64,000 nt of DNA, from the sequence record OR896825.1; one strand, 5' to 3'. Below are positions 3,703-19,690 of the stretch, piece by piece. Origin of the DNA: Escherichia phage Delraymugoa. Each line of letters begins with the position of its first letter. Position 1 is the stretch's first letter. Made by a program: the position numbers and the translations under genes. The notes below the pieces were generated by a model. It was not told where the DNA came from. It made no database searches and was given only the letters and a program-made list of their open reading frames with translations.

Positions 3703-3731
3703 ATTATAGGGGATCGGTGATCCCCTGTCAA
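3703..3731 (-). promoter_or_regulatory. early promoter TTGACA-N17-TATAAT with GGGGATCACCGATCCCC hairpin spacer (PeSL)
   Basis: revcomp 3726-3731 TTGACA; revcomp 3703-3708 TATAAT. Confidence 0.65.
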
Positions 3732-14326: not shown

Positions 14327-14803
14327 TTAATCATGACCGTGATTTGCAATATCCGCTCGCGTCTTATCTTTGTGATTTCCTACGTCAAAGACACGATAAC
14401 CATTTTCACGCAAAACTTTAATCACTTCTGGGTTATCCTCAAAGACTCCGACAACTTCATCTTTATCAAAGGATTTAATTACCTCTAATTTGATGTGATA
14501 GTCTTTACGGGAATCGGTACGGCCTCTCATAAAGATTTTATCAAAACACACCCCGTTAGAAATTAACCAATCAATTGTTTCCATGTAAGCATGTGAACTT
14601 CGTCCGGTGAGGATGTAAATCAAATGCCCGTTGTCGGAAAGAGCATTAATAACACGAATTACATCGTAAATGGGGGAATCACCCCCACATGCCTTGTTAT
14701 ATTCGATCCATGACTCGACTTTATCAAGATTTTCGGTTGGCATCTTTGCTAGTCGATGTGTTGGATCTGTGATCGTAAAATCTAAATCGACAAAATATAT
14801 CAT
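14327..14803 (-). CDS. HAD-superfamily phosphatase (possible nucleotidase)
   Basis: motif I DLDFT (DxDxT), motif II ILTGRS, motif IV FEDN. Confidence 0.55.
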   Translation of the reverse strand: MIYFVDLDFTITDPTHRLAKMPTENLDKVESWIEYNKACGGDSPIYDVIRVINALSDNGHLIYILTGRSSHAYMETIDWLISNGVCFDKIFMRGRTDSRKDYHIKLEVIKSFDKDEVVGVFEDNPEVIKVLRENGYRVFDVGNHKDKTRADIANHGHD

Positions 14804-15960
14804 AGATATTTCCCGAATCGGTTGTAGTCGTCGTCTGTTAAATCGGTATTAACCTGAGATACCAGATACATAATCTCTACTTCCTGCGCTGCATTCTGTA
14901 CTTCGTCAGAGTTCAACCATTTACGCATCCACGGTAACGGATGACGACGAACACTAAACGGGCTTTTCAGTCCGGCAGCACGCATACGGGAATCTGCCAG
15001 GTATTCTACATAGGTTTTCAGAATTTCCGGTGACAGGTTAGGAATTGCCCCCATTGCGAATAGGTGGTCTACCCATTCTTTTTCTTGCTCGACAACATCC
15101 AGAAAGATTTTCGTTGCTTCGCCTTCAAGTTCTTCCGCAATCTGTTTCCACTCATCACCATCAACCCCCGTTTGCCATTGACGAATAATGTATTGTGTGC
15201 CTTTTAAGTGAAGTTGTTCATCACGCGCAATAAATTTCATGATCTTCGCGTTACCTTCCAGTAAACCACGTTCGGCAAAGCTGAAAGTACATGCAAAGGA
15301 CACATAAAAACGAATTGCTTCCAGTGCATTGACGCAGTGTGCACACAGATAAATCGAAGCCATCAGATCTCGTTTTGTATCTTCAAAAAATCTTCTTGCA
15401 TCATCTAATGCTGTCTGGTCGTCTCGTTCTTCCCAATAGCGGAGATCTTCTTTTGCATTCTCATACTTACGAATCCAATAAAGAACATCATCATAATATT
15501 TCCCGATAGATTCCGCTCGCTTCATGATAGCAGGGTTATCGATGATCTGGTCGAACTCACTGGCCGGATCAATGAAACAGTTACGCATAATGTGTGTATA
15601 GCTTCGGCTATGAATCGTTTCGCTGAATGTCCATGTTTGCAACCATGTATCGAGAGTTGGATCAGATACAATTGGTCCAAATGCTGCGGACGGTGCGCGA
15701 CCTTGAATAGAATCAAGTAATGTCTGATACTTCAAGTTTTCAGTAAAGAAACGCTTTTCAACGTCACCCATATTAAGATATTGAATGCGGTCGGTTGCAA
15801 GTGAAATTTCTTCTGGACGCCAGAAAAATGACAATTGCTTTTCGATCAGTTCTTCAAATACTTGATGACGCTGAATATCATAGCGAGCGATACCCAACCC
15901 ACTACCCAGAAACATTGGTTCGTTCATAATATCAACATGTTCGCGGTTAAATACGCTCAT
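14800..15960 (-). CDS. nrdB: ribonucleotide reductase small subunit (uninterrupted, no intron)
   Basis: 386 aa, di-iron ferritin-like motifs, adjacent to nrdA. Confidence 0.9.
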   Translation of the reverse strand: MSVFNREHVDIMNEPMFLGSGLGIARYDIQRHQVFEELIEKQLSFFWRPEEISLATDRIQYLNMGDVEKRFFTENLKYQTLLDSIQGRAPSAAFGPIVSDPTLDTWLQTWTFSETIHSRSYTHIMRNCFIDPASEFDQIIDNPAIMKRAESIGKYYDDVLYWIRKYENAKEDLRYWEERDDQTALDDARRFFEDTKRDLMASIYLCAHCVNALEAIRFYVSFACTFSFAERGLLEGNAKIMKFIARDEQLHLKGTQYIIRQWQTGVDGDEWKQIAEELEGEATKIFLDVVEQEKEWVDHLFAMGAIPNLSPEILKTYVEYLADSRMRAAGLKSPFSVRRHPLPWMRKWLNSDEVQNAAQEVEIMYLVSQVNTDLTDDDYNRFGKYL

Positions 15961-15975
15961 TAATTCACCTCACTA

Positions 15976-16143
15976 TCACTTTTTAACACAAAAGAACTTA
16001 GTATTTCTGTTTATTTCGTTATCCTGTTGCAATTCCTGCACGGCTTCAAAACAGCTTTGATGTGATGAAAACTCCACGCTGGTAACAGTTCCTTTATTAT
16101 ATGAGCCTACACTAACGGAAAGCAATAACCATAATGTAGCCAT
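15976..16143 (-). CDS. small protein with hydrophobic N-terminus (55 aa), tandem paralog
   Basis: hand translation MATLWLLLSVSVGSYNKGTVTSVEFSSHQSCFEAVQELQQDNEINRNTKFFCVKK; start overlaps upstream stop (TAATG). Confidence 0.5.
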   Translation of the reverse strand: MATLWLLLSVSVGSYNKGTVTSVEFSSHQSCFEAVQELQQDNEINRNTKFFCVKK

Positions 16144-16316
16144 TAGTTCACCTTTTGTTTTTCAACGCAATATAGATTCATAAAGCGTTTATTGTCTTCG
16201 CGGATAATCTCGCGAGCTTTAACGCAATCCTGCTTTGTTGCAAATTCAATGCTTGACATATTTCCGTAATTATACATTGAATTGCTGATTGCAATCAATA
16301 ACCATACAGTAGCCAT
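16143..16316 (-). CDS. small protein with hydrophobic N-terminus (57 aa), tandem paralog
   Basis: hand translation MATVWLLIAISNSMYNYGNMSSIEFATKQDCVKAREIIREDNKRFMNLYCVEKQKVN; TAATG overlaps at both ends. Confidence 0.5.
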   Translation of the reverse strand: MATVWLLIAISNSMYNYGNMSSIEFATKQDCVKAREIIREDNKRFMNLYCVEKQKVN

Positions 16317-16483
16317 TATCCGACAACCTCAAAACATTTATCATCAGGAAGAATCGCCCATTCTACACCGTATTCATCCTCAACGTAGTAGCAAATTCCA
16401 TCATGTCGAGCATCATATTCATCACCGACAACAAAGCTATCAGCTAGCTCAAAATCTACAGCAACACATTTTAATTTGGTCAT
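16316..16483 (-). CDS. small acidic protein (55 aa, start trimmed to MTKLKCV)
   Basis: RBS GAGGAT before ATG 16481-16483; track start lies in promoter -35. Confidence 0.45.
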   Translation of the reverse strand: MTKLKCVAVDFELADSFVVGDEYDARHDGICYYVEDEYGVEWAILPDDKCFEVVG

Positions 16484-16514
16484 AATAAAATCCTCACTTG
16501 TTTTTGATGGTTGT

Positions 16515-16543
16515 ATTATAGCGGGGATTTCTCCCCTCGTCAA
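16515..16543 (-). promoter_or_regulatory. early promoter TTGACG-N17-TATAAT with GCGGGGA..TCCCC hairpin; copy 1 of 42-bp direct repeat
   Basis: revcomp 16538-16543 TTGACG, revcomp 16515-16520 TATAAT. Confidence 0.6.
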
Positions 16544-16551
16544 CAGTTATT

Positions 16552-17391
16552 TTACAATCCATCGCAAGCATCAATATAAGCACTTACAAAACTTTCTATA
16601 AAAAGTGCTCCGACTTGAGGAACTATCGCATTGCCATAACCGCGCAATCGTCCCATTGTTGAGGATACCCCATCAGCCAACAAGGGAATCGTGGGTTCAA
16701 CAATTCGTTTTTTCCCGTCTCTGCATAGATACTCTGTTCCACTGTCCCAAAACCGTAATACATCTTCACTTGTTCTGATAAATTTCCCGGTGCTAGTGAT
16801 TTCCTCCCCGTTGCAAGTCTCGCTTCCATTCTCCGTTGCATTGCTTCCGGCGATCTTGCTGATATATTCGTTACAGTAGGTGTTTGCCAACTCGTTAATA
16901 GCCCCGAAGAAAAGTCTGTCCCGCTTGTGCGGCGCACCGACGATATCACATGATAATACCGCAGCCCCGACACTGTAACCTTCTCTTTCCAATTCCTCGT
17001 GAAGATCATCCAACCACCCCGTTTCGATAGCTTTTGCAACCTGTTCCCCAAAGAGCATTGGAGGTTTGCACGCTGACACGAGTTTAAGAAATGTCGGTGC
17101 AAGGTGTCTTTCGTCGAACTTTCCTTTTTGCTTTCCGGCTCTTGAAAATGGTTGACATGGTGGCGATCCAGTCCATAGTCTTGTTGTTTCTGGTACTCCA
17201 GCGAGTTGCAATGCTCTTGACCACCCCCCAATCCCCGCGAAGAAGTGACATTGTGTAAATCCTTCCAGATCTCTAGGGGTGACTTCTGTAATTGATCTTT
17301 CATCGACATACCCATAAGGAATTAATTTGTTTGCTATAAGTTCACGTAACCAATTAGCCGCGCCTTTATCCCACTCATTGTAATAATTCAT
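16552..17391 (-). CDS. C5-cytosine methyltransferase-like protein (compact, 279 aa)
   Basis: motif I FFAGIGG, motif IV GSPPCQPFSRAG, motif VI FGEQV, motif VIII KRDRLFF, motif X GYGNAIV. Confidence 0.65.
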   Translation of the reverse strand: MNYYNEWDKGAANWLRELIANKLIPYGYVDERSITEVTPRDLEGFTQCHFFAGIGGWSRALQLAGVPETTRLWTGSPPCQPFSRAGKQKGKFDERHLAPTFLKLVSACKPPMLFGEQVAKAIETGWLDDLHEELEREGYSVGAAVLSCDIVGAPHKRDRLFFGAINELANTYCNEYISKIAGSNATENGSETCNGEEITSTGKFIRTSEDVLRFWDSGTEYLCRDGKKRIVEPTIPLLADGVSSTMGRLRGYGNAIVPQVGALFIESFVSAYIDACDGL

Positions 17392-17409: not shown

Positions 17410-17438
17410 ATTATAGCGGGGATTTCTCCCCGCGTCAA
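17410..17438 (-). promoter_or_regulatory. early promoter TTGACG-N17-TATAAT; copy 2 of 42-bp direct repeat
   Basis: revcomp 17433-17438 TTGACG, revcomp 17410-17415 TATAAT. Confidence 0.6.
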
Positions 17439-17446
17439 CAGTTATT

Positions 17447-19690
17447 TTACAGCTTACAGGATGAACACTCGCTAGCGTCTTCCGTACCATCTGCACCGTC
17501 GCGAACGTTCGCATAATACAGGGTTTTCAGACCGTAATATTGAGCAAACAACATATCATCTAATACATCAGCAATATCGACTTTACCAGTCTTATAAGTG
17601 CTTGGATCGTAGGATGTGTTGGAACTAATCGCCTGATCTACAAACTTCTGCATGATCGCTGCCAGTGTCAGATAAGGCTTGTTACCTTTCTTGATCAGTG
17701 TCCAAAGCAGGTCAATAACATCAGCATTATTCTCTACGTTCGGAATAACCTGATTAAATTGCCCTTCTTTCGATCCTTTAACCGATACAATCCCGCGAGG
17801 CGGTTCAATACCGTTTGTGCTGTTAGATACCTGAGAAGATGACTCGCAAGGCATCAGCGCCGAAAGCGTACTGTTACGAATGCCATATTTTTTCAGGTCT
17901 TCGCGCAGTTCTTCCCAATCCATCTCATACACAGGATCAACCAGTTCATCTACTGTCTTTTTGTACCAGTCGATAGGAAGTTCACCGCGTCCATAACGTG
18001 TTTCATGCATCAGTTCGCAAGCACCCTTCTCTTTAGCCAGTTGCACACTAGCCTTAATCAGAGCATATTGCAAGCGTTCAAACGTTTTATGCGTAAACTC
18101 GTTAGCATCTTCATATGTGAAGAAATTATCTGCTAGATATGATGCAAAGTTAGTAACACCAACACCCAGAGAGCGACGTTTTTTGGCTGTCAGTGCTTGT
18201 TCTACAGGATAATCCTGATAATCTAACAGGTTGTCAAGTGCACGCACCATAACCATAGCAATGCGTTCTACTTCTTCCATATTTTCGATATCGAAATTAC
18301 CTAAAACATATGCTGCCAAAGTACATAGGCTAATTTCTGAATCATCACGACCCATCGGTTTTGTTGGCAGAGCAATTTCACAACACAGGTTAGATTGTTT
18401 AATCGGTGCTACATTACGAATAAACGCCCCGTGATTGTTCATGTTGTCTGTGAACGTTGGGTAGATTCGACCAGTGTTAAAACGTTCAATTGCCACCGCT
18501 AAAAACAGGTCTTCGGCTTTAACACGAGTTTTACGAACACTCGGATCTTTTTCCAGTTTTTCGTAAAGTTGGCGGAAACCTTCCTCATCTCGGAAGTATA
18601 GATCCCACAACAAGCCACCTGCAACATCTGGACTAAACAGAGTAATGTAATCCCGTTTAAGGAATCGCTCTACCATCAGGTTATTAATCTGTACGCCGTA
18701 GTCAAGATGGCGAATGCGGTTATCTTCCACGCCCTTATTGTTCTTTAACACAATCAGACTTTCAAACTCTAAATGCCACATTGGGTAATAGAGTGTCGCT
18801 GCCCCGCCACGAATACCGCCTTGTGAGCATGACTTAACGGCAGTCTGAAAATGTTTCCAGAATGGGATAACTCCAGTATGACGAACTTCACCATGCCCGA
18901 TCTTAGATCCTTCCGCGCGAATCATGCCAGCGTTGATACCGATACCAGCACGCTTGCTAATATACTTGATGATTGCATTTGCGGTTTCATTAATACCCTG
19001 CAATGAGTCATCACTTTCAATCACCACACACGAACTAAATTGGCGTGTTGGGGTACGCACACCTGCCATAATCGGAGTAGGCAGAGAGATTTGCTTATTC
19101 GCAACAGCATTATAAAAATCAATCACATGTTCAAGTCGATTTTCTGTCTCTTCTTGATGCAAGCACATACCGATCAACATATACGCAAATTGCGGTGTTT
19201 CGATGATTTTCTTAGTGCTGCGATCTTGAACAAGATATTTCTCTTTTAACTGCATCGCACCAGCATAGGTCATTTTAAAATCAAGTTTATGGTCGATGAA
19301 TTTCTCCAGATATTCCACTTCTTCACGGGAATACTTTTGCAGAATTTCGCGATCATATTTTCCGGTTGCAATATTACGCTCAATATGGCTGTAAAAATCA
19401 ATCGGTTGGAATTGACCGTATACTGATTTGCGAAGCGCGAACATTGCAAGGTTACTTGCTACATATTGATAATCGGGTGTTTCTACCGTGATGTTATCTG
19501 CGGCGACCTTAATCAATACTTTCTGGATATCATTGGTAGACATACCTTCTGTCAGAAGTGGTTCAACCATATCAAACAATTCATATGGATCAACGTTATG
19601 ACCTTCGGCTGCCGCTTCCAGAATTTTCATTACTTTTTCTTTTTCAAACGGAACAGTCAGACCGGAAGACTTAACAACATTTTTAATCAT
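17447..19690 (-). CDS. nrdA: ribonucleotide reductase large subunit
   Basis: 747 aa, catalytic motifs incl. NLCCEI and C-terminal CxxC tail. Confidence 0.95.
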   Translation of the reverse strand: MIKNVVKSSGLTVPFEKEKVMKILEAAAEGHNVDPYELFDMVEPLLTEGMSTNDIQKVLIKVAADNITVETPDYQYVASNLAMFALRKSVYGQFQPIDFYSHIERNIATGKYDREILQKYSREEVEYLEKFIDHKLDFKMTYAGAMQLKEKYLVQDRSTKKIIETPQFAYMLIGMCLHQEETENRLEHVIDFYNAVANKQISLPTPIMAGVRTPTRQFSSCVVIESDDSLQGINETANAIIKYISKRAGIGINAGMIRAEGSKIGHGEVRHTGVIPFWKHFQTAVKSCSQGGIRGGAATLYYPMWHLEFESLIVLKNNKGVEDNRIRHLDYGVQINNLMVERFLKRDYITLFSPDVAGGLLWDLYFRDEEGFRQLYEKLEKDPSVRKTRVKAEDLFLAVAIERFNTGRIYPTFTDNMNNHGAFIRNVAPIKQSNLCCEIALPTKPMGRDDSEISLCTLAAYVLGNFDIENMEEVERIAMVMVRALDNLLDYQDYPVEQALTAKKRRSLGVGVTNFASYLADNFFTYEDANEFTHKTFERLQYALIKASVQLAKEKGACELMHETRYGRGELPIDWYKKTVDELVDPVYEMDWEELREDLKKYGIRNSTLSALMPCESSSQVSNSTNGIEPPRGIVSVKGSKEGQFNQVIPNVENNADVIDLLWTLIKKGNKPYLTLAAIMQKFVDQAISSNTSYDPSTYKTGKVDIADVLDDMLFAQYYGLKTLYYANVRDGADGTEDASECSSCKL

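Follow-up and report, generated by a model that had tools for sequence, protein, structure and literature searches.

Three short genes upstream of nrdB in Escherichia phage Delraymugoa: two tandem members of a widespread phage mini-protein family

Introduction

What do three very short genes placed directly upstream of nrdB contribute to a phage? We addressed this question in Escherichia phage Delraymugoa (sequence record OR896825.1), of which a stretch of 64,000 nucleotides (nt), hereafter the window, was analysed. The 2.7 kb surrounding the three mini-genes is 95–99% identical to RB49-like coliphages (genus Krischvirus, Straboviridae). The mini-genes are called A, B and C here, in their order of transcription; lengths are given in amino acids (aa) and scores refer to a hidden Markov model (HMM) of the B/C family:

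16316..16483, minus strand: gene A, equivalent to RB49p233; 55 aa; phrog_16302
16143..16316, minus strand: gene B, equivalent to RB49p232; 57 aa; phrog_5579; family HMM E=1.3e-25
15976..16143, minus strand: gene C, equivalent to RB49p231; 55 aa; phrog_5579; family HMM E=1.2e-22

A first-pass annotation of this DNA took B and C for exported or membrane peptides. The best explanation of the evidence assembled below is that this RB49-like phage carries A, B and C as early, non-essential accessory genes and that B and C encode soluble cytoplasmic mini-proteins, most likely dimeric binders. We regard the globular, cytoplasmic part of this reading as probable and hold its more specific parts with less confidence.

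Coding status, junctions and selection

The translations given in the first-pass annotation match the minus-strand open reading frames (ORFs) exactly. Its description of B and C as unlisted holds in that they are absent from the ORF list, but only because of the default 60-aa threshold of that list: all three are annotated coding sequences in the RB49 RefSeq record, where RB49p231–233 stand as hypothetical proteins, and they are also annotated in Phi1, GEC-3S and other records. Gene A starts at the ATG at 16483, not at an upstream TTG inside the promoter. Across nine Krischvirus genomes, variation in the three mini-genes falls mostly on third codon positions, and the pooled ratio of nonsynonymous to synonymous polymorphism (pN/pS) is 0.18 for A, 0.06 (0.057) for B and 0.30 for C. 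The three genes are under purifying selection. They are genuine and already catalogued genes, and no new element is added here: their products are represented by RB49p231–233 and by phrog_5579 and phrog_16302, and their promoter belongs to the published promoter-early stem-loop (PeSL) elements. With B or A as the query, word-indexed protein searches retrieved near-identical Krischvirus proteins and nothing else.

The chaining by TAATG stop–start overlaps claimed earlier is present at both junctions. Base 16316 is common to the TAA of A (16318–16316) and the start codon of B, giving TAATG at 16318–16314, and base 16143 is common to the TAA of B (16145–16143) and the start codon of C, giving TAATG at 16145–16141; both junctions are unchanged in the nine Krischvirus genomes. 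Stop–start overlaps of the UAAUG type have been discussed as translational coupling (PMC2988022). Since each mini-gene is also preceded by its own Shine–Dalgarno (SD) sequence (GAGG at 16495–16492 for A, GAGG for B and AGGTGA for C), coupling along A-B-C is plausible, not required.

A broad family of phage mini-proteins

The claimed paralogy of B and C is borne out by 40% identity over 55 residues (E=1e-16) and by the match of both to phrog_5579, a family of unknown function, at about 1e-24 (E=1.2e-24 for C and 6.8e-24 for B, each across the whole 52-position profile); a chance similarity is excluded on these scores. The kaaroe record labels both genes as VOG8694. Profile matching thus identifies B and C as diverged tandem paralogs in a widespread, uncharacterised phage mini-protein family, phrog_5579/VOG8694, whose model matches only B and C within the 64 kb of the window.

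Searching 1.84 billion representative proteins with a profile of B and C gave 58 matches at E≤1e-3, nearly all of them 50–70 aa long. Two longer matches, P0010 (351 aa) and P0032 (587 aa), were rejected as spurious, being tandem low-complexity repeats unlike phage proteins. In the resulting 54–56-member alignment, C31 and C52 are invariant, which extends to the whole family the two conserved cysteines noted in the first-pass annotation, and conservation reaches 90% or more at W5, L7, G18 and F25. The family signature, present in B and C, consists of a W-L-L core, a Y-N-x-G loop, an E-F pair and the two invariant cysteines; in B and C the hydrophobic N-terminus reads W-L-L-I/L-x-V/I-S.

Family members occur in T1-like Drexlerviridae, in an Erwinia jumbo phage, in a Vibrio phage and in lambdoid contigs, where they lie between replication genes and an Ead/Ea22-like gene plus NinB. 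Further copies are found between an integrase gene and an HTH_17 gene and in a small-gene array downstream of a GIY-YIG endonuclease gene; nearly always the surroundings are early or accessory genes. The start codon of a member overlaps the upstream stop codon in at least six contexts (Motto, Henu7, pSf-1 gp43, IME347, the integrase-linked contig and the P0016/P0011 contigs). A search for the ‘MTTITVWLL’ subfamily retrieved only short metagenome contigs and nothing in viral or genome contigs.

Named families and solved structures yielded no relative. Pfam contained no match for B or C at E≤1 and none above threshold for A, B or C; no NCBIfam family was common to more than 2 of the 54 members, the best E-value of any being 0.016; and a PDB sequence search with the family profile found no solved structure. 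Phrog_5579 is shown here to be a broad, strongly constrained mini-protein family with an invariant cysteine pair, a confidently predicted fold and no solved relative.

Three side observations concern the family and its tandem copies. Members remain unannotated in the deposited genomes of Henu7 (locus L004, 3001–3156), tiwna and FSL SP-031, pointing to gaps in small-gene annotation. Phage pSf-1 carries two diverged copies, gp39 and gp43. In the window, B and C agree at 19 of their first 21 nt (16314–16334 and 16141–16161, minus strand; ATGGCTACnnTATGGTTATTG), far above the rest of the genes; constraint on the region of re-initiation could account for this, or else gene conversion between the tandem copies.

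Predicted fold of B and C

AlphaFold2 (AF2) modelling of C from a 54-sequence alignment gave a mean predicted local distance difference test (pLDDT) score of 93.7, with 91 over residues 1–10. The model comprises β1 (residues 5–11), β2 (20–25), a helix (28–39), a short helix (42–47) and β3 (48–54), so that B and C are each predicted to form a compact, soluble ββαβ domain of ~6 kDa in which the hydrophobic N-terminus is strand β1. A homolog with 91% identity, modelled independently in BFVD, superposes with a template modelling (TM) score of 0.91, and other phage proteins of similar size in BFVD, at 9–30% identity and with family membership unchecked, reach TM-scores of 0.7–0.85.

The fold search in BFVD returned only uncharacterised phage proteins, and among all PDB chains Foldseek matched none at E<1; no characterised relative of B or C thus emerged either by sequence (Pfam, NCBIfam, PDB) or by fold (BFVD, PDB Foldseek), and the predicted fold tells very little about function. 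RB69 Dmd and the p56 protein of phi29/PZA were among the Foldseek matches at non-significant scores (E 2.3–4.3, TM 0.42–0.47). Dmd, known from T4 and RB69, and p56 are early, dispensable proteins of 55–60 residues built from a three-stranded sheet and a helix; both act by stoichiometric binding and p56 is dimeric. They resemble B and C in size and α/β build but share no sequence similarity with them and no target can be inferred from them, so the comparison is one of analogy and not of membership.

On the predicted strands, residue periodicity places conserved hydrophobic side chains on both sides of the sheet (W5, L7, F25, V23 and V53 versus L6, I8 and V10), and only one long helix (28–39) is available to cover it. 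Our inference is therefore that formation of a dimer or a complex buries the face left open. The same model places C31 just past a conserved S/T N-cap, in the first turn of the helix, and C52 in strand β3.

Cytoplasmic or exported

The first-pass annotation interpreted the N-termini of B and C as signal-like and proposed exported or membrane peptides active in superinfection exclusion or envelope modulation. The claim of export or membrane insertion is not supported: hydropathy, the conservation profile and the assignment of the N-terminus to strand β1 speak against it. For the transmembrane prediction that the annotation called for, a membrane helix was taken to show a 19-residue Kyte–Doolittle (KD) mean above ~1.6 or a negative insertion energy. 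The maximum KD means are 0.81 (C) and 0.61 (B), and the summed Hessa insertion energy is about +8 kcal/mol (+7.8 and +8.2 for the C/B pair). By these calculated values, an N-terminal transmembrane helix is excluded for both proteins.

A cleavable version of the same idea, in which B and C carry a short signal or anchor, hold one disulfide and act from the periplasm on the envelope, by exclusion or by sensor modulation, is unlikely, although several features give it some credit and weigh against a cytoplasmic placement. The hydrophobic N-terminal run is followed by a conserved S11-x-G13, which resembles a signal-peptidase site with small residues at –3/–1, and a pair of invariant cysteines is more typical of disulfide-bonded peptides that are exported than of peptides that remain in the cytoplasm. 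To these we add that the Cys–Cys distance, the burial of β1 and the dimer interface are derived solely from sequence periodicity. In the AF2 model, S11-x-G13 falls at the end of β1 and the start of the following loop.

The N-terminus itself departs from a signal in several respects. B and C begin MAT, with no K or R ahead of the hydrophobic core; a basic residue precedes the core in 10 of the 54 family members and in none of the other 44. The core is too short, usually 7–11 residues: the uncharged run from W spans 7 residues in 20 members and 11 in 21. Two residues precede W in 8 members, and some members have 1–3 residues before the core, so that the would-be signal of the family totals 11–14 residues. 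This is well below the length of known Sec signals, for which an h-region of about 10–15 residues and a total of about 18 or more were taken as the standard. Inspection of the sequences revealed no lipobox cysteine and no twin-arginine motif in any family member.

Conservation points the same way. Residues 1–13 are the most conserved segment of the family, with a mean entropy of 1.78 bits compared with 2.62 in the helix, 3.47 in residues 40–47 and 2.44 in the last strand, and none of six Krischvirus variants of C differs within these residues. Cleaved signal peptides show the opposite pattern, being less conserved than the mature domain. In the model, the segment is a strand at pLDDT 91, and its removal would leave ~40 residues.

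Comparison with envelope proteins gave no support to the exclusion proposal. B and C show no sequence similarity to the periplasmic domain of MzrA (PDB 4pwu), taken as a comparison, or to any exclusion family. Pfam, in which the exclusion-family models were not verified, gave no match at E≤1, and Pfam and NCBIfam showed no homology of B or C to T4 Imm, Sp, Cor or Llp-type families, the presence of each model there being unchecked. We thus correct the export and superinfection-exclusion reading in favour of soluble proteins that probably stay in the cytoplasm.

Early promoter and probable transcription unit

All genes of the locus lie on the minus strand, in the transcription order nrdA, methyltransferase, A, B, C, nrdB and HAD phosphatase. 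The features that flank the mini-genes are:

17447..19690, minus strand: nrdA, the first gene in transcription order
17410..17438, minus strand: second PeSL copy (promoter/hairpin) between nrdA and the methyltransferase gene, from pattern and promoter scans
16552..17391, minus strand: C5 cytosine DNA methyltransferase gene (PF00145, phrog_363), immediately upstream of the promoter and gene A
16515..16543, minus strand: PeSL-type early promoter, from pattern and promoter scans; identical in RB49
14800..15960, minus strand: nrdB, starting 15 nt after gene C
14327..14803, minus strand: HAD/PNKP-type phosphatase gene (PF25109, E=2.9e-13), the last gene of the apparent unit

The promoter placed at 16515–16543 by the first-pass annotation is supported: read from 16543 to 16515 on the minus strand, the element is TTGACG-17 nt-TATAAT and agrees with the sigma-70 consensus at 11 of 12 positions (–35 box TTGACG at 16543–16538, –10 box TATAAT at 16520–16515). 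Its 17-nt spacer holds a hairpin, GGGG (16536–16533)-AGAAAT-CCCC (16526–16523), so that the full element reads TTGACG-A-GGGG-AGAAAT-CCCC-GC-TATAAT and is followed by GAGG and ATG. RB49 has the same element base for base between nrdA and p233; the GEC-3S record calls it a promoter, the Makalu_003 record a terminator. By the published definition (PMC2839356), a PeSL is an intergenic element in which a hairpin of a G-tract and a C-tract lies between the sigma-70 consensus –35 and –10 boxes or overlaps them, with an SD sequence and a start codon downstream. Every sequence criterion of that definition is found at 16515–16543, which identifies the site as a known type of element, a PeSL early promoter, with a predicted role as promoter/attenuator.

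The terminator scan found no terminator-like site from gene A to nrdB, and C and nrdB do not overlap but are separated by a 15-nt gap that holds an SD sequence. Given the absence of such a site and the shortness of this gap, co-transcription of A-B-C with nrdB is likely. The start of the HAD phosphatase gene overlaps the nrdB stop (ATGA). Most simply, A-B-C are probably the first genes of an early unit that runs into nrdB and the HAD phosphatase gene.

The setting corresponds to the PeSL and ORFan cassettes described in RB49 and phi1, phages of the same genus (Arbiol, Comeau and Krisch 2010; PMC2839356). It differs in that B and C are not true ORFans, as they have homologs in many other phage groups. 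The main text of that paper contains no match for nrdA, nrdB or ORFs 231 and 233, and the lone ‘232’ and ‘234’ in it are reference page numbers; our literature search found nothing on the mini-gene ORFs beyond general papers on PeSLs and mobile elements.

Dispensability and turnover at the nrdA–nrdB gap

Phage JSE keeps A, nrdA, nrdB and the HAD phosphatase gene and has a homing-endonuclease gene exactly in the place of B and C (L027, 2299–2946). B and C are dispensable because JSE lacks both. In G5211, C and nrdB are separated by an inserted HNH endonuclease gene (L023, 1219–1565). A metagenomic Krischvirus relative (L031, 37–204) carries in the position of C an allele only 47% identical to it, behind a TAATG overlap, next to an NrdB that is 93% identical; its upstream gene ends in ...HDEVEEVK and is neither A nor B. 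This allele reflects either allele replacement or very fast divergence.

Krischvirus shares with T4 a hotspot of insertion in the gap between nrdA and nrdB. The gap is known as such in T4-type phages; in T4 it holds mobE, which also starts with a UAAUG overlap (PMC2988022). The parallel with such homing endonuclease insertions lies in the shared gap, the same UAAUG-type overlap and the endonuclease genes of JSE and G5211 at or adjoining the site, whereas A, B and C differ in having no nuclease domain (no Pfam match above threshold). Early expression, non-essentiality, patchy distribution and allelic divergence together form the usual signature of accessory host-interaction genes.

Possible function of B and C

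Under the explanation preferred here, host sigma-70 RNA polymerase would transcribe A-B-C early from the PeSL promoter as the 5' part of a unit continuing to nrdB and the HAD phosphatase gene. The three genes would be translated as a chain through their 1-nt stop/start overlaps, each of them also having an SD sequence of its own. B and C would fold as soluble ββαβ domains whose N-terminus is β1, with neither signal nor membrane anchor. Encoded by tandem and probably co-translated genes, they would pair as a heterodimer in this phage, with homodimers in phages that hold a single copy, and C31 and C52 would serve as a structural or metal-binding pair. The dimers would act in the cytoplasm early in infection by stoichiometric binding of a host (or phage) protein. 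Many small phage proteins of host takeover or anti-defence bind their targets in this manner.

A bolder version can be formulated, to which we give little credence. It would have the four invariant cysteines of the B-C heterodimer (or of the homodimers formed from single-copy genes) build a metal or disulfide centre between subunits, and would make the ~12-kDa dimer the representative of an unrecognised, widespread class of early effectors, for example inhibitors of a conserved host defence or housekeeping protein. JSE offers a natural knock-out of B and C, and the family occurs in easily engineered coliphages, which makes it a cheap target for screens of host-takeover and anti-defence functions.

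Lying between nrdA and nrdB, and sharing a probable transcript with nrdB and the HAD phosphatase gene, B and C could instead have an accessory role in ribonucleotide reductase (RNR) function or nucleotide metabolism, for example as a mini redox carrier or a Cys-ligated metal or Fe-S dimer serving NrdB. The place of C31 in the first helical turn after the S/T N-cap would suit such a role. Moreover, in the T1-like phages Motto, Henu7 and pSf-1 the homolog follows, with a start/stop overlap, a HAD phosphatase gene whose product is 39–44% identical to that of the window; this T1-like counterpart is annotated as ‘polynucleotide kinase’. We nevertheless consider an RNR-linked role very improbable and reject it on the phyletic pattern and on JSE, which has nrdA, nrdB and the HAD gene yet no B or C. 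Among the loci retrieved, NrdA and NrdB stand beside family members only in those of Krischvirus type, with none in the 2–5 kb flanks of the T1-like, lambdoid, Vibrio and integrase-linked copies, and the gap that the genes occupy is the insertion hotspot of T4-type phages noted above (PMC2988022).

The HAD linkage was downgraded separately and is probably not functional. HAD homologs were found in 1012 phage records, most of which have no detectable phrog_5579 homolog; 431 of the records are Klebsiella phages, whereas a tblastn search with C matched only two Klebsiella phages; the 2–5 kb flanks of the lambdoid, jumbo, Vibrio, Braunvirinae and Tunavirinae members contained no HAD match.

The weakest alternative, in which the ORFs encode no functional proteins and act as a spacer or leader regulating nrdB translation, draws on their very short length and their position directly upstream of nrdB, but it has next to no probability, being already contradicted by the strong purifying selection on A, B and C and by a protein family kept across unrelated phages and genomic contexts, and the confident predicted fold also opposes it.

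Gene A

Gene A encodes an acidic protein of 55 aa (pI 4.05) with three cysteines. By tblastn, all 57 matching phage records (57/57) belong to Krischvirus, which classes gene A as a Krischvirus-restricted ORFan (phrog_16302), different in kind from B and C. Its AF2 model, from a shallow alignment, is all-beta with a pLDDT of only 69. Since JSE retains gene A in the absence of B and C, its function is independent of theirs.

In kaaroe (L025, about 670–837), gene A is unannotated and carries a +1 frameshift, since a run of T close to codon 10 is one base longer; its matches in FL38, AV108 and FL20 are truncated or split. These cases may represent real decay or sequencing errors.

The probable methyltransferase cassette and a further PeSL-like site

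The methyltransferase gene upstream of A is bracketed by two near-identical PeSL copies, where RB49 has a single PeSL at this site. Most Krischvirus genomes have no counterpart of the gene; full coverage (100%) of the query is reached by KMB43 and LF73P4 alone. The shuffling model of PeSL cassettes in RB49 and phi1 predicts a gene flanked by two PeSL copies, the arrangement seen here, and the methyltransferase gene looks like a textbook case of PeSL-mediated cassette insertion. A third PeSL-like site lies at 3703–3731 on the minus strand (TTGACAGGGGATCACCGATCCCCTATAAT), with three mismatches to the search pattern.
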